Notes: generated by a model from the letters alone, not told the origin. DNA of 64,000 bases from an uncultured Pseudomonadota bacterium (GCA_963770835.1 CAVYRH010000002.1:96001-160000); one strand, 5' to 3'. Positions 6,125 to 32,987 are shown, counted from the first letter of the stretch. Numbers and translations are program-made.

Positions 6125-7630
6125 CTATCCATTAGGGACAAACCACAGGCGTCCCAATTCCCGTATCTTGACATGGTAATTATTTTGAATTTCCTCTACC
6201 ACCGGCTTGGGAAGCAGGTACTGCTCCGGCCTGTCGTACAATTCGATCGTGGAGAATTTTTTTGACCGAATGTCACCGATAAGGGGCTCTTCGCTCCAAA
6301 TTCCCCTTTTCACCATGGCCGTGTATTCGGCGGGTTGGATCCAGATTTTCTTTCCGGCCATCACCGGCAGGTCCAAATCCAGGGCCAAGTGGTTTTCCCC
6401 GGTTTCATAAATCTTAGAGGCGGCTAATTTCGCATCCCTCTCTTCGGCAGGGGGTGTGGTGGGCCATTTACCGGCGGGCAAAAAAACGTAGAGGGCCACA
6501 CCCAAAAGCACCCTGCCCCAGACCGCGGTTTTTCCACCGGGGCTCCAACGGAAGATCCCATTCCAGGGAGAAACCCAAGCCTCCCCGATAAAAAAAATCC
6601 CATAAAGAAGGAATTCCAGCCAGTAGTTTTCGGCGCCCAAAACCCGCCCCAAGGATAAAAGGCTTAGGCCGGAAAAAACAATTTGGATCTTGGGGAGCAA
6701 GGGGACGCGCTTGACCGCCCAAAGAAGCAGGACAGCGGCGGAAAGGGCCCCCCCTTCCCTCCAAAAAACCCGTGAAATCAAATACCAAAAAGCCCTCATG
6801 TCGAATCCCGTGTTCGCCCAAGCCACGGTATGTTCGTAAAACAATCCCTTCGTTTGAACCTGTTCGATCGCGAAAACAACCGTCAAAGGCGCCAGGAAAA
6901 AAAGGGCGTAATCCCCCAGCCGGGCCCATTGCCGCCGGGCCACGCAATAGAGGCCGTAAACCACCGCCAGGGCCAGGGTGCTTTGCTTGATGAGGACCGC
7001 AGCCGCGTTGAATAAACCCGCGGCGGCGATCCCCATCCTTCCCTTGGCGGGTTTAAGGGAATCCCCGTAAAGCAACAGAAAAGCGGCGAAGTGGAAGAAA
7101 AGCGCCAAGGCATCGCATCGCACCATGGTCCCCCATTCGGCCCAGGTCGGAAAAATCCAAAGCAGAAGGGCCGAAAAAACGGCCCACACCCATCCCCATC
7201 GCCGGAACCCCCAGGCCCCCAAAAGGATCCCGCATCCCAAATAGCCCGCGAAAGCCAGGAACCTGCCGGGTTGCCACACCAAGCCGGTAGCCTTGAGAAG
7301 CCCAGCCTCCAGCCAAGAAAAAAGGGGCGGATAAACCGAATAAAGGTAGGGACCGCCCTTGGCGCTGTCAGGATAAAGGTTCTCTCCTCGCAAAAGGATT
7401 AGGCCCTTTTCCACGTTGATCGCTTCCCCTTGTTCCACTTGCAGGGGATAGGTAAGCCGGTGGTAAAGGGCGGGAAGTCCGAGGAGGAAGGTCGCGGCAA
7501 CGAAAACGGCAGGAAGAAAAAGGATCATTCGGTAGAAGTAATCATTGGCCGGAAAAGAGGGGTTGCTTACCTGTTGGGAGAAGGCTCGTCCCTTGGCTGC
7601 CATCTTCTCCACCCTTTGATTATTCAACAA
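6125..7630 (-). CDS. Multi-pass membrane protein, probable GT-C-type glycosyltransferase (true start may be ~7603 or later)
   Basis: About 10 hydrophobic segments; YPPLF, RCDALA and KQ motifs resemble GT39/GT87-like proteins. Confidence 0.55.
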
Positions 7631-8918
7631 TCATCCCTGCGCCCACGGTGTTGTTGGTAAGCTCGTCGATGAGGATGAAGCTGCCGGTCGCCCAGTTGCG
7701 GTCATAGGGGTCGAAGCAGATGGGTTTGAGCGTCTGGACGTTCACACGGGCGATGTCGTTGAGGTTCAACTGTTCGGCCAAATTTTTGTCGAGGGTCTTC
7801 ATGTCCCTTACCCAAAGGATATTGTCCACCAGGGCCTTGGTCTCGCCGGTGGCCAGCTTCAAAAGATACTTTTTCTTCAACGTCAGGGGTTCCTTGACCA
7901 TCCAGCACAGGTGAGCCTGGAATTGCCGCTCGCATTGGGGTTCGTTGCCGGGATAGGCCAGCATATCGCCGCGGGAAATGTCGATCTCGTCGTTTAAGCG
8001 CAAGGTCACGCTCATGGGGGGATAGGCTTCTTCCAACTCCCCGTCGAAGGTGTCGATGGAGCGGATGGTGGAGGTGGCCCCGGAAGGCAGCGCCACGACC
8101 TTTTGTCCTTTTCGGGCGATACCGGAGGCGACTTTCCCGGCGAACCCCCGGTAATCCAGGTTTGGCCGCAGGACGATCTGGACCGGAAAACGGAAATCGT
8201 CCAGATTCCGGTCCTTGGAAATCTCGATGGTCTCCAAATGGTCCAATAGGGCCTTCCCCTTGTACCAGGGCATGGCGGGGCTTTTCACGGTGACGTTGTC
8301 GCCCTTCAAGGCGGAAATGGGGATGAATTCCAGGTTCTTCAGCGAGGGCGGCGCGGGATTTTCCTCCACCAGGCGCTGGAAGAAGGCCTCATAGTCGGCC
8401 TTGATCTTCTCGAAAACCTCTTCCTTGAAGTCCACCAGGTCCATCTTGTTGATGGCCACGACGATATGTGGGATGCCCAGGAGCTTGGCGATATAGCCGT
8501 GCCGCTTGGACTGGATCATGACCCCGTTGCGGGCGTCGATGAGGATGATGGCCAGATCCGCCGTGGAGGCGCCGGTGACCATGTTGCGGGTGTATTGCTC
8601 GTGTCCCGGAGTGTCGGCGATGATGAACTTCCGTTTAGAAGTGGCGAAATAGCGGTAGGCTACGTCGATGGTAATTCCCTGTTCCCGCTCCGCCGCCAAC
8701 CCGTCGGTAATCAGGGCAAAATCGATGTCCTCCCCACCCTTTTTCCGGGTGGTCTTGCGGATGGCATCCAATTGGTCCTCAAAGACTCCCTTGGAATCGA
8801 AAAGAAGCCTGCCGATGAGGGTGGATTTGCCGTCGTCCACAGACCCGGCCGTCGAGAACCGCAGCATGTCCATCTTTTCGTAGTTTAATAGCGTCTTTGC
8901 GTTTAGCGTCATGTGCAA
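7620..8918 (-). CDS. cysN: Sulfate adenylyltransferase subunit 1 (no fused APS kinase domain)
   Basis: [47 protein letters not shown] and NKMD; the protein ends at TVGAGMI. Confidence 0.96.
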
Positions 8919-8955
8919 TATTTCTCCGCCAAGAAAATAAAACTAGCCGGCCCTC

Positions 8956-9047
8956 GAATTTTGAATGTTGAATTCTCAATTATGAATTTTTTGAAATTTT
9001 CTTCCGGCCCACCGGAAGAAAATATCCATAATTTAAGATTCAAAATC
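8956..9047. repeat. AT-rich heptad (TGAATT-like) repeat forming a long imperfect hairpin between cysD and cysN
   Basis: gaattttgaatgttgaattctcaattatgaat ... atccataatttaagattcaaaatc, with an inner stem attttcttccgg/ccggaagaaaat. Confidence 0.7.
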
Positions 9048-9051
9048 GCCC

Positions 9052-9975
9052 TTAGAAGTAGCCTTCCTTCTTCTTCTGTTCCATCGAGCTGTCCGAACCG
9101 TGGTCGATGATACGATTTTCCCGTTCGCTCTTGCGGGTGCCGATCAAGTCCTCGATGATGCCCCTCAAGTCATGGACTTCGGGCTCGGACTGGACGGCGC
9201 CCGTGCAGGACATGCAGCCCAAAGAGCGAAACCGCACCCGCATGTCCTTGACCTCGTCCCCTGGCAGGATCGGGATATGGGAAACCCAGGGGATGAGCAA
9301 CTCCTTGCGCTTGATGATCTTGCGGGTGTGGGTGAAATAAATGGGGACAACGGGTATTTTTTCCATCTCGATATAGAGCCAGATATCCAGCTCGGTCCAA
9401 TTGGAAAGGGGGAAAACCCGGATGGACTCCCCTTCGTTGACCTTGGAGTTGTAAAGGTCCCACAATTCGGGCCGCTGGTTCTTGGGGTCCCACTGGCCAA
9501 AGGAATCCCGGAAGGAATAAACCCTCTCCTTGGCCCTGGACTTTTCCTCTTCCCGCCGCGCCCCGCCGAAAGCCGCGTCGAATCCGTGTTTGGTCAGGGC
9601 ATCCAAGAGTCCCTGGGTTTTCAGCAGGCCGCAGCATTTCTGGACCCCGTACTTAAAGGGGCTGGAACCGCCCGCAATGGCTTCCTCGTTACGTTCCACC
9701 AGAAGCTTGGCGCCGATTTCCTGGATAAACTTGTCCCGGAACTCGTACATCTCGGGGAATTTGTAGCCGGTATCCACATGCAGGAGGGGAAAGGGGATCT
9801 TGCCGGGGTGGAAGGCCTTTTGGGCCAGGCGCACCATGACGCTGGAATCCTTGCCCACCGAATAAAGCATGACCGGGTTTTTAAACTCGGCCGCCACTTC
9901 CCGGATAATAAAGATGCTTTCCGCTTCCAGTTGTTTTAGGTGGGAGAGGGTTTTAGCGTCGGTTGAGGTCGGCAT
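9052..9975 (-). CDS. cysD: Sulfate adenylyltransferase subunit 2
   Basis: [47 protein letters not shown] and RFRSLGC. Confidence 0.97.
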
Positions 9976-10102
9976 TTTTCTCTCTTCTTACAGGTTCCAG
10001 GCCATTATTCGGACTTTGCGCTGCCAAAATCCAGGGCAAGGCCAAAAGCCCAACAAAAATACACTTTTCCGGGTTTTTACTCAATCCAAAAGCCTAGGAG
10101 CC

Positions 10103-11151
10103 TTAGAGGGGAAATACATGGAAGGCGGTAATGGCGGCATAAACCTCCTGGCCTTCCTTGAAACCGCTGGCCAGGGCCACGCCCTTGGGAACCTGCGCCG
10201 AAATATTCTTGTCTTCCCCGATATCGAGTTTGTATTCGATCACCGTGCCCTTGAACCGGGTTTTGGCGATCTTGGCCCTTACCTGCAGGGTCTCGAACTG
10301 GGCGGTCATGTAAACGTCGTTGGGCCGGAAATAAATGCGGATCTTTTGCTTCACCGGCAGGCTGGGGTTCACCGGAAAGCCGGAAAGGCCCCCATACGCG
10401 CCAGCCCCTTTTCGGCGACTTCCGTGTCGATGAAGTTGGTTTCCCCCACGAATTGGGCGATGAAATGGGTCGCCGGCTTGTCGAAAATCTCGATGGGAGA
10501 GTCCCGTCCTGCTCGATCTCCCCCTGGTTCATGATGAGGATGCGGCTGGCCACTTCCATGGCCTCCTGCTGGTCGTGGGTGACGAAAAGGGTGGTCACGT
10601 TGGTTTCCTCGTGGAGCCTCAGTATCCATTCCCGCAATTCCTCCCGCACCTTGGCGTCCAGGGCCCCGAAAGGCTCGTCCAAAAGCAGCACCTCGGGCCG
10701 GGGGGCCAGGGCCCTGGCCACGGCCACCCTTTGGCGTTGCCCGCCGGAAAGCTGGGAGGGATAGCGTTTCTCGTAACCGTTCAGCTGGATCAGGTTCAAA
10801 AGCTCATAAACCCTGGCCCTGAATTTCCTTTTCGGCTTGTTTGCGCACCCTTAGGCCGAAGGCGATGTTCTCGAAAACGTTCATGTGCTTGAAAAGGGCG
10901 TAATGCTGGAAAACAAACCCGACATTGCGCTCCTTGGCCGAGGCATAGGTGGCTTCCCGGCCGGTCAAATGGATTTCCCCCGCGTCGGGGATCTCCAGCC
11001 CCGCGATCATGCGCAGCAGGGTGCTCTTGCCCTGATCCCGAAGGGCCCAGGAGCGCCGTCAGGGAGCCCGTTTCCAGCTTCGGCGCTCACCTTATGGACG
11101 GCCTTGAAGCCGTTGAAGATCTTAGTGAGATCCGCGGACTTCAATACTCAT
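10103..11151 (-). CDS. cysA: Sulfate ABC transporter ATP-binding subunit (several frameshifts)
   Basis: ATG at 11151 (MSIEVR). Fragments carry [47 protein letters not shown] and a TOBE-like C-terminus (10103..10372). Confidence 0.9.
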
Positions 11152-11164
11152 GTCGGGCTCACTT

Positions 11165-12063
11165 TCAAGGTGCGTCGGCAACATCCGGCTTTCCCTTTCG
11201 TATTCGGGCGCTCACCATGCTCTTGGCGATCAGGGTTAAAACGGCCAGGAAGGTCAAAAGGGACGCCACGGCAAAAGCCGCCGTGAAATTGTAATCGTTA
11301 TAAAGGATTTCCACGTGCAGGGGCAGGGTGTTGGTCAGGCCCCGGATATGCCCCGAAACCACGGACACCGCCCCGAATTCCCCCATGGCCCGGGCGTTGC
11401 AAAGAATGATGCCATAAAGAAGGCCCCACTGGATATTCGGCAGGGTCACTCTCCAGAAAATCTGCGTGGCCGTTGGCGCCCAACACCATGGCCGCTTCTT
11501 CCTCTTCCGAGCCCTGTTCCTGCATGAGGGGGATCAGTTCCCGGGAAACGAAGGGAAAGGTCACGAAGATCGTGGCCAGGACGATGCCCGGGCACGGCGA
11601 AAATGATTTGGATGTTGTGGTCCTTCAGCCAATGCCCCATCAGCCCCTGCAGCCCGAACAAAAGAACGTAAATCAACCCCGAAACCACGGGCGAAACCGT
11701 AAAAGGAAGGTCGATCAGGGTGATCAGGAGGTTCTTGCCCGGGAAATTGGAATTTGGTGATGGCCCAGGCCGAGGCCAAGCCGAAGACGGAATTGAAAAA
11801 AATCGAAAAGAAAGCCGTGATCAGGGTCAACTTGATGGCGGACAAGTGCGTCGGGTTCCCGGATGGCGTCGAAGTAATAGGCAGATCCCCTTATCCAGGG
11901 CGGAAGTGAAAACCTGGGCCAAGGGTACTAATAGGAACAGGGCGATAAAAAGCAGGGCCACGGAGGTCAAGGTCCACCGGACCCAACGAGGCTCGGTAAG
12001 GGCCCGGGCTGGGTCCGATAATCGGTCGCCTTTTAAGCTGAGGATGAGTGTTTCTTTCGTCAC
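11165..12063 (-). CDS. cysW: Sulfate ABC transporter permease CysW (several frameshifts)
   Basis: Fragments 11827..12063, 11561..11845, 11446..11688, 11298..11564 and 11165..11449: [44 protein letters not shown]. Confidence 0.9.
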
Positions 12064-12087
12064 GTCTCCGCCTTTTCTATTACTTAC

Positions 12088-12176
12088 CTGCGAACTGCCG
12101 ACTGGTTTTTTTCCTCGTGTCTTTCGCTTTTTCTGTTCCTTGCCTGCGAACTGCCAACCGTCGACTGCCGACTGGT
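12088..12176. repeat. Heptad (CTGCNNA-like) intergenic repeat between cysT and cysW
   Basis: ctgcgaactgccgactgg ... ctgcgaactgccaaccgtcgactgccgactgg. Confidence 0.55.
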
Positions 12177-12177
12177 T

Positions 12178-13009
12178 CTAATGAATCCGGTGCAGGCCGG
12201 TGCGCGACTGCAGCCAGTTGATGGTCAATAAAAGCGTAAAGGAAATCACCAGCATCACCACCCCGATGGAGGTGGCTCCCGCGTAATCGTATTGTTCCAG
12301 TTTGGTGATGATCAAAAGGGGCGTGATTTCGGTCTTCATGGGCATGTTGCCGGCGATGAACACCACCGAGCCGTATTCCCCCACCGCCCGGGCAAAGGCC
12401 AGGGAAAAACCCGTGATCCAGGCCGGCACCAAGGTGGGCAGGACCACCCGCGTGACGGTGTACCAGCGGTTCGCCCCCAGGCTGACCGCCGCTTTTTCCA
12501 TTTCGGGGTCCAGGGACTCCAATACGGGCTGAAGGGTCCGCACGACGAAGGGCAATCCGATGAAGGTCAGGGCCACCACCACGCCCAGGGGCGTATAGGC
12601 CACTTTGATTCCCAGGGGCTCCAAGCGGCTCCCGATCCAACCGTTCGGCGCGTAAATCGCCGTCAAGGTAATACCCGCCACCGCCGTTGGCAGGGCAAAG
12701 GGCAGGTCTACCATGGCATCGATTAGTTTTTTGCCCGGAAACTCGTAACGCACCAACACCCAAGCCACGATTACCCCAAAGATGGAATTGATGACCGCGC
12801 CGATGAAGGAAGCTCCGAAGGTCAGCTTATAGGAGGCCATGACGCGGGGGCCGGTTACTTCCGAGAGGAATTGGGCCCAGGTCAGGGTGGTGGACTTTAG
12901 AGATGAGGGCGGCCAGGGGGATGAGGACGATCAGGCTCAAATAAGTCAGGGTAAATCCCATGGTCAGGCCGAAACCCGGCAACACACCGACGGATTTCAT
13001 TTTTTTCAT
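12178..13009 (-). CDS. cysT: Sulfate ABC transporter permease CysT (frameshift at ~12850-12900)
   Basis: VLPGFGLTMGFTLTYLSLIVLIPL, then VDLPFALPTAVAGI, GLPFVVRTLQPVL and FARAVGEYGSVVFIAGN. Confidence 0.93.
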
Positions 13010-13278
13010 TTCCCGCTTCTTTCCCAGCCCCTCAATAATTCACGAATGGCCTGGATGGCCTCGGATGCGTCCTCGCCCTCGGCCGAAAACTCCAGTACCG
13101 TACCATAAATGGCGCCGATGGTTAAGAGTTCCAAAAGGCTCTTGGCATTTACTGCCCTCAACCCGTTGGAAACACGAATGTTGCTTTTAAAACGGCAGGC
13201 CGTTTTGGCTAATTGGGCTCCCGCTCTCAAGTGCATCCCCAAGCGGTGAAGAATCGGAATTTTTTCAATGACACTCAT
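13006..13278 (-). CDS. HPr-family phosphocarrier protein
   Basis: 90 aa from the ATG at 13278. GMHLR is the His15-equivalent motif, VNAKSLLELL the Ser46-equivalent, plus AEGEDA. The stop overlaps the cysT start (ATGA). Confidence 0.85.
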   Translation of the reverse strand: MSVIEKIPILHRLGMHLRAGAQLAKTACRFKSNIRVSNGLRAVNAKSLLELLTIGAIYGTVLEFSAEGEDASEAIQAIRELLRGWERSGK

Positions 13279-13402
13279 ATGATTCCCTCGAACCTTTAAA
13301 AAAGGTTCACTATGGGTTAGGTGGATTTCCATGGATTCCTCGAACATCGGATCGTTTGAGGGGCCGGCTAAATCGACGCCCCTTCATTTCTCCGGTTTCA
13401 TT

Positions 13403-14426
13403 TCATCCCCGTCTGATAAATCTGGTCGAAAACCCCCCCATCGCCGAAATAAGTTGGTTGGGCTTTTTTCCAGCCGCCGAACAGCTTGTCGACGGTGAAT
13501 AAGTTTGATCTTCGGGAACTGCTTGGCGTATTTGGCCGCCACCTTCTTGTCCCGGGGCCGGTAGTAATTGCGCGCGGCGACTTCCTGGCCCTTCCTTCGT
13601 GTACAGGTAATTCAAGTAGGCCTTGGCCAATTCGGTGGTCCCGTGCTTCTCGGTGTTTTTGTCCACCCAGGCCACCGTAGGCTCGGCCAGGATGCTGACC
13701 GAAGGATTCACAATCTCGAACTGGCCCTTGCCGAGTTCATTCACGGCCAAGTAGGCCTCATTTTCCCAGGCGATCAAGACGTCGCCGATTCCCCGCTCCA
13801 CGAAGGTGGTAGTGGAACCCCGCGCGCCCGAATCCAGGACCGCCACGTTCTGGTAAAGCTTGGTCACGAATTCCCGGGCTTTGTCCTCAGTCCCGTACTT
13901 CTTCAAGGCATAACCCCAGGCCGCCAGGAAATTCCAGCGGGCCCCGCCGGAGGTCTTGGGGTTGGGCGTGATGACCGAAACGTCCGGCCTCACCAGGTCG
14001 TCCCAATCCTTGATGTCCTTCGGGTTCCCCGTCCTCACCAAAAGCACGATGGTGGAGGTATAGGGCGCGCTGTTGTCGGGCAGGCGGGTCTGCCAGTCCT
14101 CCGGCAGCAGCTGGGCCTTGGTGGCGATGGCGTCGATATCCCCCGCATATGCCCAAGGTGGCCACATCGGCCTCCAGCCCGTCGATGATGGCGCGGGCCT
14201 GCTTGCCCGAGCCCCCGTTGGAGACGTTCACGGTCAAATCCTGGCCCGTTTCTTTCTTCCAGTACTCGGCGAAGACCTTGTCATAGTCCTCGTAAAGCTC
14301 CCGGGTCGGGTCATAGGACACGTTCAGGATCTGGGCCGGCCCCGCCGGGGCGCCCTGGGCGTGAACCCAAGGAGCCGGCTGCGAGGTTGATCAGAAATAA
14401 CGCAGTAAAAAATTTCTTTTCTTCAT
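13403..14426 (-). CDS. sbp: Sulfate ABC transporter substrate-binding protein (frameshifts)
   Basis: ATG at 14426 with an [65 protein letters not shown]. Confidence 0.93.
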
Positions 14427-14439
14427 GATATCTCCTTGG

Positions 14440-15936
14440 TTAAAAGTTGGCCTGGGCCCGGACCGTGAAGACATCCTCCGGCAAAAGGCTGGCCAGCGCT
14501 TCGGCCACACCGGAGTACCTGGGCCCCCTCCACGAAATCCGTCTCTTCCCAGTCGAAGACCAGTTTGAAATGGGGGTTGAAAATCCAGTTCAGGCCCGCC
14601 CCGAAAGCCGTGGCTTGCTGGGCCGAATTGGTGGCCGCTAAGTTGGATGCCGCCGTCGCGCTGAAGGCGTTCGGGTCGATGCGTCAGTTGGTGCACGCGC
14701 ACCGCCACTTCCAAGGCGCCCCAATGGCCCTTGCGCAGGTCCAAATCCTTATCCGCGATGGCACCCTGGTAAGGAAGCCTTTCCGCCGATGACCCAGGAA
14801 GCCCGCCAACTGCCAGGCCTGGTTGGCCACATTGACGGCGTTCGCCTTGCTGGTGCCCACGTCCTGGGTCGACTGCACGTATTCCCCCAATAGCCCGAAG
14901 GGGCCGTTGGAGTAGTAGAGCCTGCGGGGAGCAATGGTAGAAATCGCCCTGGGGCGAAACGCCCGTGCGGTAGGCAAAGAACTGTTGCTGCCCCAGGGAA
15001 GTGACGAAGTAATTGGGAAAGGCGTTGGTGTTCCAGTTCACATTCCAGGACCAGTCTCCCCGAAATTCCGAACCCGAGGTCTTGCAGGAAGGAATCCTCT
15101 CCCTTGAAGAGGGTCAGGAAAAGCCTGCCCGAGAGTTCCTTGCCGTTGGTCAGGCTCTGGTCGTCCGCGTTATTGGGCGTGTAGTTGTCGGGCGTCCCGG
15201 CGGTGAGGGCCACTGCGTAATTGACGCCGTTCCAGGGGCTGCCCGTGGCCTCGGCGCCCAGGTCCCGGTTGGGGACCAGGTCCGTCGGCAGGGCCCTTTC
15301 CACGAAAAGGTTATCCGTGTCGTTTTGCAGCCTTTCCAGGCCGATCGGCACCTTGAATTTTCCCGCTTGGAATTGCAGGGCAGGGTCCGCCTTGATGAAG
15401 GCATAGGCGTCCTGGATGGCGTAGCCGGTGGACCCCAATTCGGCCTGGTAGCGGAACCCCACCAAGTGGTCGAAAATGGCGATCAGGTCCAGCCTCGTTT
15501 TGCGGTTCAGGAAGGTGCTGGTGGACTTACTGGTCGTGGCCCCGGCCGCGCCCTCCTCGGGTTCGTCGGTGCTTCCGATCGGCACATAGTCGAAATAGGA
15601 CGTACTGGGCTGGAAATAGCTCCGGTAATCCTCCTGGACATTGCCCCCGATCTTGAAAATCACGTCCCCGGACGGGTCCGAAAGGTCCAGGTAGTTATGC
15701 TCGGTGGTAAGCACCACCTCGCTTTTTTCCAGCTGGTTCAGGCGGTTGTTAAGCCCCTCCACGCCTGCGAAAGGCGTCAACGCCGGCGTGGGCTGCGCCT
15801 CGTCCCCCCCTGAGGGCGTCCCAGCCGCCGCAGTGGTTTTACCGCCCGTGGAATCCTGCGCCCAAGACCTTGCCGAACTAAGAATCCCAACCAAAACCAA
15901 GACAGCTAAAGCAAATACCGACTTTCGACTTTTCAT
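14440..15936 (-). CDS. OprO/OprP-family anion-selective porin (frameshifts in the C-terminal third)
   Basis: Signal peptide; DAY...GKFKVPIGLERLQ, FVERALPTDLVPNRDLG; C-terminal fragments include GPFGLLGEY, AWQ and GALEVAVR; lies directly upstream of sbp. Confidence 0.8.
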
Positions 15937-16001
15937 GACAAACCCCTTTTATTTTATTTACCCTTTTTGTATCGCGGAGGGTTTCCGCTCGGGGTCTTCG
16001 G

Positions 16002-16036
16002 AATAATCCGACCCCGCTTCTTCAGCGGGCCGGGAT
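16002..16036 (-). terminator. Expression-platform hairpin of riboswitch copy 3 (weak U tract)
   Basis: Minus-strand AUCCCGGCCCGCU-GAAGA-AGCGGGGUCGGAU followed by UAUU. Confidence 0.5.
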
Positions 16037-16053
16037 ATAAGATATCTCGAAGA

Positions 16054-16122
16054 CCGCTTTAGCGCCCTGTTTGGTTTCTTTCGAAACACCGGTCGGGGCA
16101 AGTTGGCAATTAAATCCCACCG
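16054..16122 (-). ncRNA. SAM-II/SAM-V-fold riboswitch-like aptamer, copy 3 (upstream of the porin)
   Basis: CGGUGGGAUUUAAUUGCCAACUUGCCCCGACCG-[GUUUCGAAAGAAAC hairpin]-CAAACAGGGCGCUAAAGCGG. P1, UUU, UUGC and GCUAAA occur in the order of the SAM-II core. Confidence 0.75.
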
Positions 16123-16170
16123 TAAAACTTTTAAACTCCGAACTTCTTACACCTCCCAAAATAATCTTGA

Positions 16171-16264
16171 ACCACCAAGGTCACCAAGAAAAGCAAAAAT
16201 TGAATATCGGATCTTCAGCATATAAGAATCTTTGCCTTTAGTCTTTCTTGGTGACCTTGGTGGT
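16171..16264. repeat. REP-like element with perfect 21-bp inverted arms
   Basis: accaccaaggtcaccaagaaa (16171-16191) / tttcttggtgaccttggtggt (16244-16264); related to 42176..42266. Confidence 0.8.
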
Positions 16265-16287
16265 GAAAAAAGTTTAGCTTTTGCCTT

Positions 16288-16956
16288 TTAATTCGAATGC
16301 ACCGTTTCCTTCGCCTGGCCCTTGTTCGGCTGGGGCGTCAAGCGCAGGTAAGGCCTCACCGCCTTGTAACCCTTCGGGAAACGTTCCTTCAGTTCCTTCT
16401 CGTCCTTCAAGGCCGGGACGATGACCACGTCATCCCCGTCCTTCCAATTCACCGGGGTAGCGACCTTGTAATTGTCCGTCAATTGCAAGGAATCGATGAC
16501 TCGCAGGATTTCGTTGAAATTGCGGCCCGTGCTGGCCGGGTAGGTGATGGTGGCGCGGACTTTCTTATCGCCATCGATGATGAAGACCGACCGGACGGTG
16601 GCGTTGGCCAGAGAGTTGGGATGGATCAGGTCGTACAGCAGCGAAACTTCGTGGTCGTGGTCCGCCAAAATCGGAAAATTCACATGGGTTTTCTGGGTCT
16701 CGTTGATGTCCGGAATCCAGCCCTTGTGGTTTTCCACCGTATCGACCGAAAGGGCGATCACCTTCACGCCCCTCTTCTCGAATTCGGGCTTCAACCGGGC
16801 CGTTTCACCCAATTCAGTGGTGCAAACGGGCGTGAAATCCGCGGGATGGGAAAACAAAACCACCCAGGACTTACCTGCCCATTCGTAAAAACGGATCTTC
16901 CCTTCGCTGGACTCCTGCGTGAAATCCGGCGCTACGTCTCCTAGTCTTAAAGCCAT
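16288..16956 (-). CDS. 1-Cys peroxiredoxin (Prx6 / LsfA-like)
   Basis: FSHPADFTPVCTTELG, YPASTGRNFNEILRVIDSLQLT and ATPVNW; one Cys only. Confidence 0.93.
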   Translation of the reverse strand: MALRLGDVAPDFTQESSEGKIRFYEWAGKSWVVLFSHPADFTPVCTTELGETARLKPEFEKRGVKVIALSVDTVENHKGWIPDINETQKTHVNFPILADHDHEVSLLYDLIHPNSLANATVRSVFIIDGDKKVRATITYPASTGRNFNEILRVIDSLQLTDNYKVATPVNWKDGDDVVIVPALKDEKELKERFPKGYKAVRPYLRLTPQPNKGQAKETVHSN

Positions 16957-17039
16957 GACATGCCTCCTGTTTTAAATGTTCACCTTTTTTGGTTTCCCAA
17001 AAACCTTGCGGTGAAATTGTTTGTATGCGGCCGGGATAC

Positions 17040-17077
17040 AAAAAAACCCGAGACCGCTTTGGTGGCGGCTCGGGTTT
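17040..17077 (-). terminator. Intrinsic terminator of riboswitch copy 2
   Basis: AAACCCGAGCCGCC-ACCAAA-GCGGUCUCGGGUUUUUUU. Confidence 0.8.
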
Positions 17078-17099
17078 CCGAATTTCTGGAAAGCAGGCG

Positions 17100-17233
17100 C
17101 CGCTTTAGCTCCCTGTTCATTAATTTCCTAAGAATCTCCCAGGAAACCAACCCGGCCGGGGCAAGTTGACGAAAACCCTTGTTTTTCAGCGGTTTCCGGG
17201 GTCCCTCTCGGAACCCGCATTAAAGCCTCGCCG
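17100..17233 (-). ncRNA. SAM-II/SAM-V-fold riboswitch-like aptamer, copy 2, with long insertions
   Basis: CGGCGAGGCUUUAA-[two inserted hairpins]-CAACUUGCCCCGGCCG-[long hairpin]-GAACAGGGAGCUAAAGCGG. Confidence 0.7.
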
Positions 17234-17262
17234 TACATCCAATGAGAAAACACCCGTAAAAC

Positions 17263-17297
17263 AAAAAACCCGGGCCGCTTTTAGGCGGTCCGGGTTT
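17263..17297 (-). terminator. Intrinsic terminator of riboswitch copy 1
   Basis: AAACCCGGACCGCC-UAAAA-GCGGCCCGGGUUUUUU. Confidence 0.8.
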
Positions 17298-17320
17298 AGG
17301 AGGTGTCTCTTAAACTTTAA

Positions 17321-17389
17321 CCGCTTTAGCTCGCTGTTCGACCCCTTTCAGGAATCACGCCGGAGCAAGTTGGAACTTAAAGCCCGCGT
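17321..17389 (-). ncRNA. SAM-II/SAM-V-fold riboswitch-like aptamer, copy 1
   Basis: ACGCGGGCUUUAAGUUCCAACUUGCUCCGGCGU-[GAUUCCUGAAAGGGGUC hairpin]-GAACAGCGAGCUAAAGCGG. Confidence 0.72.
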
Positions 17390-17400
17390 TCAATGTTGGA

Positions 17401-17429
17401 ACTGTACCGAACTGCCTTTTCAATGTCAA
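17401..17429 (-). promoter_or_regulatory. sigma70-type promoter for the riboswitch/sulfate operon leader
   Basis: TTGACA (17429-17424), 17-bp spacer, TACAGT (17406-17401). The predicted start site is a few nt before aptamer 1. Confidence 0.7.
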
Positions 17430-19054: not shown

Positions 19055-19375
19055 CTACTTTTTATATTTCTTCAACAGTTCCTTGGCTGGAATCGCCTTG
19101 TTTTGACGTGTGGTGCGCTCGGCGATCGCCTCGATCTCCTTGGCTTCTTCAGGCGTCGGCTTGATGAAAGTCAGCTCCGCATGGTCGGCCACGGCGCGAT
19201 AGACGATGTCGGCGATCTTCTTGGCCAGGGGATGGTGGCCGAATTCCTCACTCAAAGCCTGGGCCACGGCATGGTCGATGAACTGGTTGATGCTTTTGTA
19301 ATGCAACTTGTTCTTCACCAGGCTTTCCAGCTTATGTTTCCCCATTCTCGGCCGGTAACTGATGACGCCTTCCAT
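19055..19375 (-). CDS. Putative antitoxin / small DNA-binding protein
   Basis: N-terminal beta-alpha-alpha-like pattern (VISYRP...KLESLVK...SINQFIDHAVAQAL). The C-terminus TPEEAKEIEAI...AIPAKELLKKY resembles antitoxin tails. Lies downstream of a RelE-like ORF. Confidence 0.5.
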   Translation of the reverse strand: MEGVISYRPRMGKHKLESLVKNKLHYKSINQFIDHAVAQALSEEFGHHPLAKKIADIVYRAVADHAELTFIKPTPEEAKEIEAIAERTTRQNKAIPAKELLKKYKK

Positions 19376-19436
19376 AAGAACCCCCGGGCCCCTGCTGGCG
19401 GGCACGGTTTAATTGTATGCCCGATGTATGCTTTTT

Positions 19437-19739
19437 TCAAGGAGGATGGGGGGCGGGGCTCTTGGGTCGAAAACGGGTGATCAGGACCCTCTCGACGGCC
19501 TGGCTTTTACCGTAATAGATCCTGCCTTGGATATCAAAGGGGATATGGTGGTCGGACTTGAAGACGTCCCCGCCCAGGCGGCGGTGGATATCCAGCCAGT
19601 CCTCGGGTGGAAAATGGACCAGGTCCTCCAGGTACCGGCGGGCCCAATCCCGCAAAATGGGCCTGGCCTGTTGTTGGAGATCCTTAAACTCCTTTTCCGC
19701 TTCGGGGCTGAACAGGATTTCCACTTCGGCGCGCTTCAT
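19437..19739 (-). CDS. Divergent RelE/ParE-like protein
   Basis: 100 aa; the N-terminus EILFSPEAEKEFKDL and the later RIYY..VLITRF segment follow the RelE pattern. Confidence 0.5.
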   Translation of the reverse strand: MKRAEVEILFSPEAEKEFKDLQQQARPILRDWARRYLEDLVHFPPEDWLDIHRRLGGDVFKSDHHIPFDIQGRIYYGKSQAVERVLITRFRPKSPAPHPP

Positions 19740-32871: not shown

Positions 32872-32987
32872 CTCTCATCTCACCCCGGTTTTAAAGACCG
32901 AAGCAGGAATTGGCACCTAACAGTTCCTGATGGAACCTGGTTGCCGTGGCATCGCAGGGCCTGTCCCTCCGCCACTCTGGATAAGAG
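32872..32987 (-). ncRNA. SAM-I (S-box) riboswitch
   Basis: CUCUUAUCCAGAG-UGGCGGAGGGACAGGCCCUGCGAUGCCA-CGGCAACC...GGUGCCAAUUCCUGC...GAUGAGAG, the canonical S-box. Confidence 0.95.

Follow-up and report, generated by a model that had tools for sequence, protein, structure and literature searches.

A sulfate-uptake locus with three repeated RNA elements

The window, a 64,000-nt stretch of DNA from an uncultured Pseudomonadota bacterium, carries on its minus strand a 1-Cys peroxiredoxin gene, an outer-membrane porin gene and a run of sulfate-uptake and activation genes, with two copies of an RNA element before the peroxiredoxin gene and a third before the porin gene. The features are given below in minus-strand order; bit scores refer to the covariance model R1 that is described in the next section.

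17401..17429, minus: candidate sigma-70-type promoter, TTGACA-17-TACAGT; a start would fall about 5 nt before copy 1
17321..17389, minus: aptamer copy 1, compact, 69 nt, 75.5 bits, within the R1 training alignment; P1 17389-17386/17360-17357, third-strand UUU 17381-17379, UUGC 17368-17365, then on the 3' side the P3 hairpin, AA 17338-17337 and GCUAAA 17330-17325
17259..17320, minus: expression platform 1, predicted antiterminator (tail GCGGU with ACCGC) versus intrinsic terminator, U tract from 17268
17100..17233, minus: aptamer copy 2, in which a structured 50-nt insert separates the UUU strand from CAAC and P3 is long; outside the training alignment, with an R1 match over its 3' part (35.5 bits)
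17038..17099, minus: expression platform 2, predicted antiterminator (GCGGC with GCCGC) versus intrinsic terminator, U tract from 17046
16288..16956, minus: 1-Cys peroxiredoxin (domains AhpC-TSA and 1-cysPrx_C), the first gene after the two gates
16160..16270, no strand: dispersed inverted repeat (REP/MITE-like) of about 110 nt, outside the switch, with arm matches in the genome
16150..16157, minus: Shine-Dalgarno (SD)-like sequence that lacks a start codon at the normal distance, about 30 nt 5' of copy 3
16054..16122, minus: aptamer copy 3, compact, 69 nt, 72.4 bits, within the training alignment
15934..16053, minus: expression platform 3, predicted translational switch, with a terminator-like hairpin (16034-16008) without a U tract, an anti-SD GAAGACCCC at 15999-15991 and the porin SD near 15946-15943
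14391..15936, minus: Porin_O_P-family outer-membrane porin, frame broken near 14750
7620..14390, minus: sbp, HPr-like gene, cysT, cysW, cysA, cysD and cysN, several frames broken

The three segments lie where the first-pass annotation had placed them, with P1 starting at 17389, 17233 and 16122 and the GCGG tails ending at 17321, 17100 and 16054. It had ascribed long insertions to all three; copy 2 does have one (50 nt versus 3 nt), but copies 1 and 3 are compact. An 18-nt tail pattern matched three times in the window (up to 2 mismatches), and none of 100 shuffles gave any match; the signal of a 12-nt core pattern was weaker, with four matches in the window and 2 of 100 shuffles reaching four. 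Regular-expression and covariance-model searches of the 4.58-Mb genome returned these three copies only. In one metatranscriptome (0.06 of words; contigs), 209 nt of the porin gene were covered and none of the switches.

The TTGACA-17-TACAGT sequence claimed as a promoter is indeed present just before copy 1, at 17429-17401, and is the single match of its pattern; since shuffles average 1.3 matches, its position beside P1 is the one thing that speaks for it. The gene order proposed behind copy 3, porin-sbp-cysTWA, needed correction to porin-sbp-HPr-cysT-cysW-cysA-cysD-cysN, in which an HPr-like (PTS) gene at 13006-13347 on the minus strand separates sbp from cysT in the sulfate operon, and in which cysW and cysA were identified through their ORF translations and position rather than by a domain scan. 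The frame break in the porin gene is probably an assembly indel, and the broken frames from sbp to cysN probably reflect long-read indels. The 22-nt arm of the inverted repeat between the peroxiredoxin gene and copy 3 matches the genome 21 times (up to 3 mismatches), and in several relatives similar repeats occupy the same spacer.

Distribution and fold of the motif family

In a cmscan of the region SAM_alpha, SAM_V and SAM-II were without a match at E≤10, and 12 chance matches of other families were returned; 16 homologous loci likewise gave no match to these three models at E≤5. When the organism's own genome was searched with RF00521, RF01826 and RF01726 (150 candidates scored each), none fell at the three sites. 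The sole match of the whole window at Rfam gathering thresholds was a SAM-I riboswitch at 32872-32987 (minus strand, 84.4 bits), the only one in the genome, which sits upstream of a PALP-family, threonine-synthase-like gene.

Exact-pattern scans located 43 genome loci (FCPU426, Elusimicrobiota, Firestonebacteria and further MAGs), 119 metagenome loci and one viral-collection locus, the last on an IMG/VR contig (L044) that may be host sequence. After 10 matches that were unparsed at the 5' end and two duplicate parses were removed from 268 regular-expression matches, 256 unique elements remained, found chiefly in FCPU426-type genomes and also in some Elusimicrobiota; in one or two rows the 5' end may be wrongly parsed. 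The search patterns themselves account for part of the conservation in the 3' blocks, and only elements with TTT or GTT passed the 5' parser. Model R1, trained on 70 of these 256 elements, had matches in 36 of the phylum's 99 scanned genomes, as many as 12 in one genome, and the covariance-model search that had been proposed for related genomes found 28 of the 30 others in the window's family. In the phylum centred on an Elusimicrobiota MAG, 12 of 151 genomes were matched, of which 4 were discarded as false. The core is missing from four weak covariance-model matches of that search (L221-L224) and from locus L202, all of which were set aside as false, and L205 lacks the 3' GCUAAA and looks degenerate.

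The elements form 170 groups: 96 singles, 61 pairs, 12 triples and one quadruple. Of 25 other peroxiredoxin loci, a motif-selected set whose kin are not independent, 11 have the same layout of two gates, a peroxiredoxin gene and a third gate. Some of these loci have a stop-to-aptamer spacer of less than 30 nt, which leaves no room for a promoter and favours a single transcript. The earlier proposal of three gates on one transcript is plausible.

The alignments support an H-type pseudoknot with the lower P2 extended to 6 bp. The pseudoknot of SAM-II/SAM-V type suggested at first is thereby supported, with SAM-V rather than SAM-II as the closest architecture: the 4-bp P1, P3 hairpin and AA follow the layout given for SAM-V in the available part of PMC6061858, where a third strand, a P2 running into the 4-bp P1, a P3 hairpin and an AA docking on P1 are described. 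Across the 70 sequences 92.1% of cells are paired, compared with 33-55% in slid-register controls, and double-sided changes number 164 versus 54 in shuffled alignments, with none of 500 shuffles as high, although these shuffle controls overstate the signal because kin are not independent. P1, whose 4 bp are continuous with the descending P2 strand, is paired in 99.6% of cells with double-sided changes at three of four pairs, and P3 covaries in the same alignment. The AA after P3 is at least 90% conserved, which the search patterns partly fix, and is predicted to dock by A-minor contacts.

The lower-P2 extension joins the four bases 3' of UUGC to the strand 5' of GCUAAA, so that lower P2 has six pairs and two bulges. 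It is fully Watson-Crick in 250 of 256 elements versus 173 ± 5 with shuffled partners (maximum 191 in 2000 shuffles). Minority left strands are met by compensating right strands in 54 of 58 cases: UCC occurs with GNGA, CUC with GAG, and at the last position C or A is matched by G or U. P2a is a CC/GG helix between the CC of CCAAC and the tail, with 2 bp in 169 of 256 copies, and the two central As of the CAAC block lie opposite mismatches. The turn may hold an insert, 36-128 nt long across the motif. In divergent members the pair next to the pocket covaries, being G-C in L218 and L219 and U-A in L199. Poor P2b pairing had been reported for copy 1; we found UUGC/GCUAA to be identical across the three copies and the lower P2 extension of copy 1 to be fully paired, with its bulge shifted.

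A SAM-II-like extension of P1 through the YYC strand was also considered. It fits only 33 of 256 elements, and a bulge-aware test favours P2. RNAalifold, which does not allow pseudoknots, picked a partial P1 extension, and fixed-column counts did not separate the two models (92.1% paired for P2, 89.7% for the P1 extension), so the choice of P2 rests on the bulge-aware test. We rejected the P1 extension for the bound state; it may form without ligand.

The distinct subclass foreseen by the first-pass annotation is thus supported and is missed by Rfam. From its sequence the motif appears to be a real, undescribed variant of the SAM-II/SAM-V kind of riboswitch, differing from each class in helix length, platform and Rfam score. 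There is perhaps one chance in four that these are instead ordinary SAM-V or SAM-II members that score below Rfam thresholds and have the same function: their core layout and pocket are those of SAM-V, and divergent homologues that lack P3 or overlap the SD exist. Such membership is hard to reconcile with the empty SAM_alpha, SAM_V and SAM-II searches of the region and the 16 loci, with a 6-bp bulged lower P2 that lies outside both consensuses compared and with terminator platforms unlike those of SAM-V, as far as the available parts of the source papers describe these classes. No description of the motif was found in the literature at hand, which included part of PMC8632094; supplements, such as that of PMC9481103, could list such RNAs.

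Expression platforms, ligand pocket and target genes

A terminator lies 3' of 231 of 252 scorable copies, and 200 of these 231 terminators have a 5' arm complementary to the aptamer tail. Downstream of copies 1 and 2, G+C-rich hairpins with U tracts (17268 and 17046) fold as terminators whose 5' arms match the tails and are predicted to pair with them, in agreement with the earlier description. Both were absent from the output of a simple terminator scan, probably because their stems carry an internal mismatch. For copy 1 the predicted probability of tail:CCGC pairing is 0.99 before the 3' arm is made, and that of the terminator is 1.00 when the tail is held. For copy 2 the isolated tail gives 0.97 for tail:CCGC pairing, and holding the tail lets the terminator form, but the pairing falls to 0.00 and the antiterminator does not form when the whole ligand-free aptamer is folded without pseudoknots. 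The full terminator is predicted to beat the isolated antiterminator at equilibrium, so control would have to be kinetic. The fifth antiterminator pair, the one variable pair, is Watson-Crick in 83 of 212 copies versus 61 ± 6 in shuffles, a weak covariation, and shows no excess over shuffles once G-U is allowed. Copies 1 and 2 likely gate by stopping transcription, and predicted folding supports the OFF switch through terminator/antiterminator competition that had been proposed for them.

Copy 3 belongs to a subclass of seven members, all of which fail the terminator test and lack a U tract. All seven keep GAAGACCCC, which is complementary both to the tail and to the porin SD. In folding calculations where a shorter 5' truncation served as a crude stand-in for ligand binding, the SD was unpaired with a probability of 0.01-0.20 when the tail was held versus 0.08-0.89 when it was free, and the free value was higher in seven of seven; with a free tail the opening reached no more than 0.47 for the window's own copy and 0.08 for L039. 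Because the subclass lacks a U tract and conserves the anti-SD, copy 3 is likely a translational gate by this modelling, and its platform resembles a terminator from which the U tract has been lost and to which an anti-SD relay has been added. The first-pass view of copy 3 as a weak terminator is probably wrong; that SAM sensing is right and copy 3 is a third, weak transcription terminator nevertheless keeps some probability, about one in five, given that its hairpin has a 5' arm matching the tail and is followed by AUUAUU and that a true U tract occurs in L024, whose tail is similar. The start-less SD-like site about 30 nt upstream accompanies six of the seven copy-3-class elements versus 9 of 249 others, and the genome encodes RNase J. 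By analogy with the STAB-SD elements described in the available part of PMC4113751, this site might, speculatively, be a 5' mRNA stabiliser.

The pocket was compared with the SAM-V crystal-structure contacts listed in Table S4 of PMC6061858, a paper available in part. The equivalents of U8, U9, U10, U19, U20, G21, C46, U47, A48, A49 and A50 are all present in the three copies. At the A18-equivalent, opposite A50, C stands in place of A; according to the available part of PMC2864571, C or A before UUGC also occurs in many SAM-II long-loop RNAs. The collection patterns did not include the 5' UUU; 247 of 258 parsed elements have it, the U8-equivalent is G in 11 of 258 and the pair next to the pocket is a C·A mismatch in 13 of 258, in tallies that include the two duplicate parses. 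The U8-equivalent pairs with the adenine-binding uridine, and the elements with G there (L001, L007, L034, L039, L110, L137, L145 and others) form a natural pocket variant.

To describe the targets, first downstream genes were taken from 145 called ORFs with one representative per cluster scanned; 25 of the 170 groups had no called ORF. The census comprised porin (38), peroxiredoxin (21), MetY-like (19), RelE-fold orphan (11), ExbB (8), DsrE-type (7), ABC ATPase (5), DUF3034 (4), SsuA-like (4), CysK-like (3), Sbp (3), FAD oxidoreductase (3), BcrAD (3), epimerase (2), sulfite reductase (1) and 13 others. Enrichment before sulfur genes, which the first-pass annotation expected, is strong among homologues. 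Divergent P3-less members precede metH (3), the SAM hydroxide adenosyltransferase SAM_HAT (1) and cysD (1). At L199:94-345 a SAM-I/IV riboswitch with a terminator is followed in the same leader by an SD-overlapping copy of the motif; the tandem precedes a TPR-containing protein of unknown function, and its relatives L197 and L198 have the second element only, within the stretch fetched. One sulfur island (L207, G050:C10:1-20000) has six switch copies with metY-like, cysK-like, SrpI-type encapsulin, DsrE, TonB-ExbBD and sbp genes.

The window itself encodes at 19437-19739 (minus strand) a 100-aa protein that has no Pfam match and a predicted RelE/ParE-like fold (pLDDT 77.5). RelE/ParE/YoeB toxins make up its top 14 VIA matches (best Z 7.4, rmsd 3.6, 78 aligned), and its best Foldseek E is 0.008. 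No switch stands in front of this gene, and a small ORF after it (19055-19405) looks RHH-like by eye. RelE-fold homologues are the first ORF behind the riboswitch in 11 loci (for example L030:2901-3215, L036:2075-2422 and L120:1574-1924), and no antitoxin-like ORF was seen right after them in these 11 loci.

SAM is the likely ligand because the SAM-V contact bases are kept, the targets include metY-like, metH, SAM-hydrolase, cysD and uptake genes, and a SAM-I/IV tandem exists; on this comparison the three RNAs probably bind SAM. The altered ligand specificity raised by the first-pass annotation is unsupported, since most of the CAAC and AACAG conservation is explained by structure, that of AACAG by the A-minor AA and P2 pairing. 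It is improbable that the same fold responds to another sulfur-status ligand, such as APS/PAPS, SAH or cysteine: genes for sulfate/sulfonate uptake and starvation predominate among the targets, metK was not seen among the first downstream genes of the 145 called ORFs, the genome has a separate SAM-I riboswitch and the longer P2 and third strand adjoin the pocket, but the two sulfonium-selecting uridines and the adenine- and aminoacyl-binding bases are unchanged, the C at the A18-equivalent is shared with SAM-II long-loop RNAs, and the metH, metY-like and SAM_HAT targets with the SAM-I/IV tandem point to SAM. Equally improbable is the more far-reaching idea of a third structural class of the SAM-II/V fold, its extended triple helix shifted to another sulfur signal (for example APS/PAPS or another adenosyl-sulfur compound), that would make the RNA the master regulator of a whole sulfur-starvation regulon, including a RelE-fold gene next to which no antitoxin was found, in an uncultured phylum. 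It is most unlikely that the motif lacks a small-molecule ligand and is a protein-binding attenuator or just a repeated terminator cassette: high identity among copies and up to 12 per genome could reflect recent duplication, but P1 and P3 vary with compensation around fixed pocket bases, and copies across phyla have differing platforms and similar gene classes.

Our main reading, to which we give a probability of about 0.82, is that this Rfam-unrecognised, SAM-V-like pseudoknot binds SAM and turns off the peroxiredoxin and the sulfate-uptake and activation genes when sulfur is sufficient. With SAM bound, the pseudoknot would hold both the third strand and the GCGG tail. The tails of copies 1 and 2, so held, would be unable to form the antiterminator and the intrinsic terminator would form, and two such gates in series would lower leak and steepen the response. 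In copy 3, holding the tail would leave the anti-SD free to cover the ribosome-binding site of the porin gene, so that the downstream part of the transcript, probably the same one, would be gated at translation.

Comparison with known SAM riboswitches

The comparisons below draw on the available parts of PMC6061858, PMC2864571, PMC9481103 and PMC12452182. With SAM-V (RF01826; metY/bhmT of 'Ca. Pelagibacter', PDB 6FZ0; PMC6061858) the motif has in common the helix order, the AA before the ascending P2, the 2-bp P2a, the pocket bases and metY-type targets. SAM-V has four contiguous P2 pairs below the ligand where the motif has six with two bulges; the third strand of the motif is longer and G-rich, C replaces A18 and the turn may hold the 36-128-nt insert. 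The motif scores below the Rfam gathering threshold of SAM-V and is hosted by FCPU426/Elusimicrobiota.

SAM-II (SAM_alpha, RF00521) shares the UUU/UUGC/GCUAAA core and mostly terminator control before sulfur and Met genes. It is described without P3 (PMC6061858), which the motif possesses, and its P2a has 5 bp in 60% of cases, compared with 2 bp in 169 of 256 motif copies; the motif also has a shorter P1 and a longer lower P2 and lies below the Rfam gathering threshold of this class. SAM-II long-loop RNAs (RF01726; PMC2864571) tolerate long inserts at the same two places. In the alignment rows compared, UUGC-RA is followed directly by P1 and an A-rich strand precedes GCUAAA, and those rows lack the paired YYC-N/C-A-GRR extension of the motif. 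Long-loop RNAs are found in Bacteroidetes and marine sequences, and the RF01726 model has no match here.

The tandem arrangement alone is not new, because SAM-II pairs with separate terminators (44 doublets; PMC9481103) and riboswitch triplets of other classes as well as bi-mechanism leaders (PMC9481103, PMC12452182) have been published. As in the SAM-II/SAM-V and SAM-I/IV-SAM-II bi-mechanism leaders of PMC9481103, a transcriptional gate would here precede a translational one with the same ligand, a pattern that L199 also shows with SAM-I/IV. In the window, by contrast with those leaders, one aptamer type would serve both platforms, and the translational one lies inside the operon behind a gene.

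The motif would extend the SAM-II/SAM-V fold by a third architecture, of which current Rfam annotation misses hundreds of natural copies, and exposes in uncultured bacteria a large, likely RNA-run sulfur-starvation regulon with up to 12 switches per genome. The size of the 69-nt copies suits direct binding assays and crystallography. SAM-V is translational, its P2a overlapping the SD, whereas the motif mostly uses intrinsic terminators and shows such overlap only in L197-L199. One aptamer type with terminators, SD-overlapping platforms and an apparent terminator-turned-translational relay offers a natural series for platform evolution, and this series bears on why SAM-II is transcriptional and SAM-V translational.
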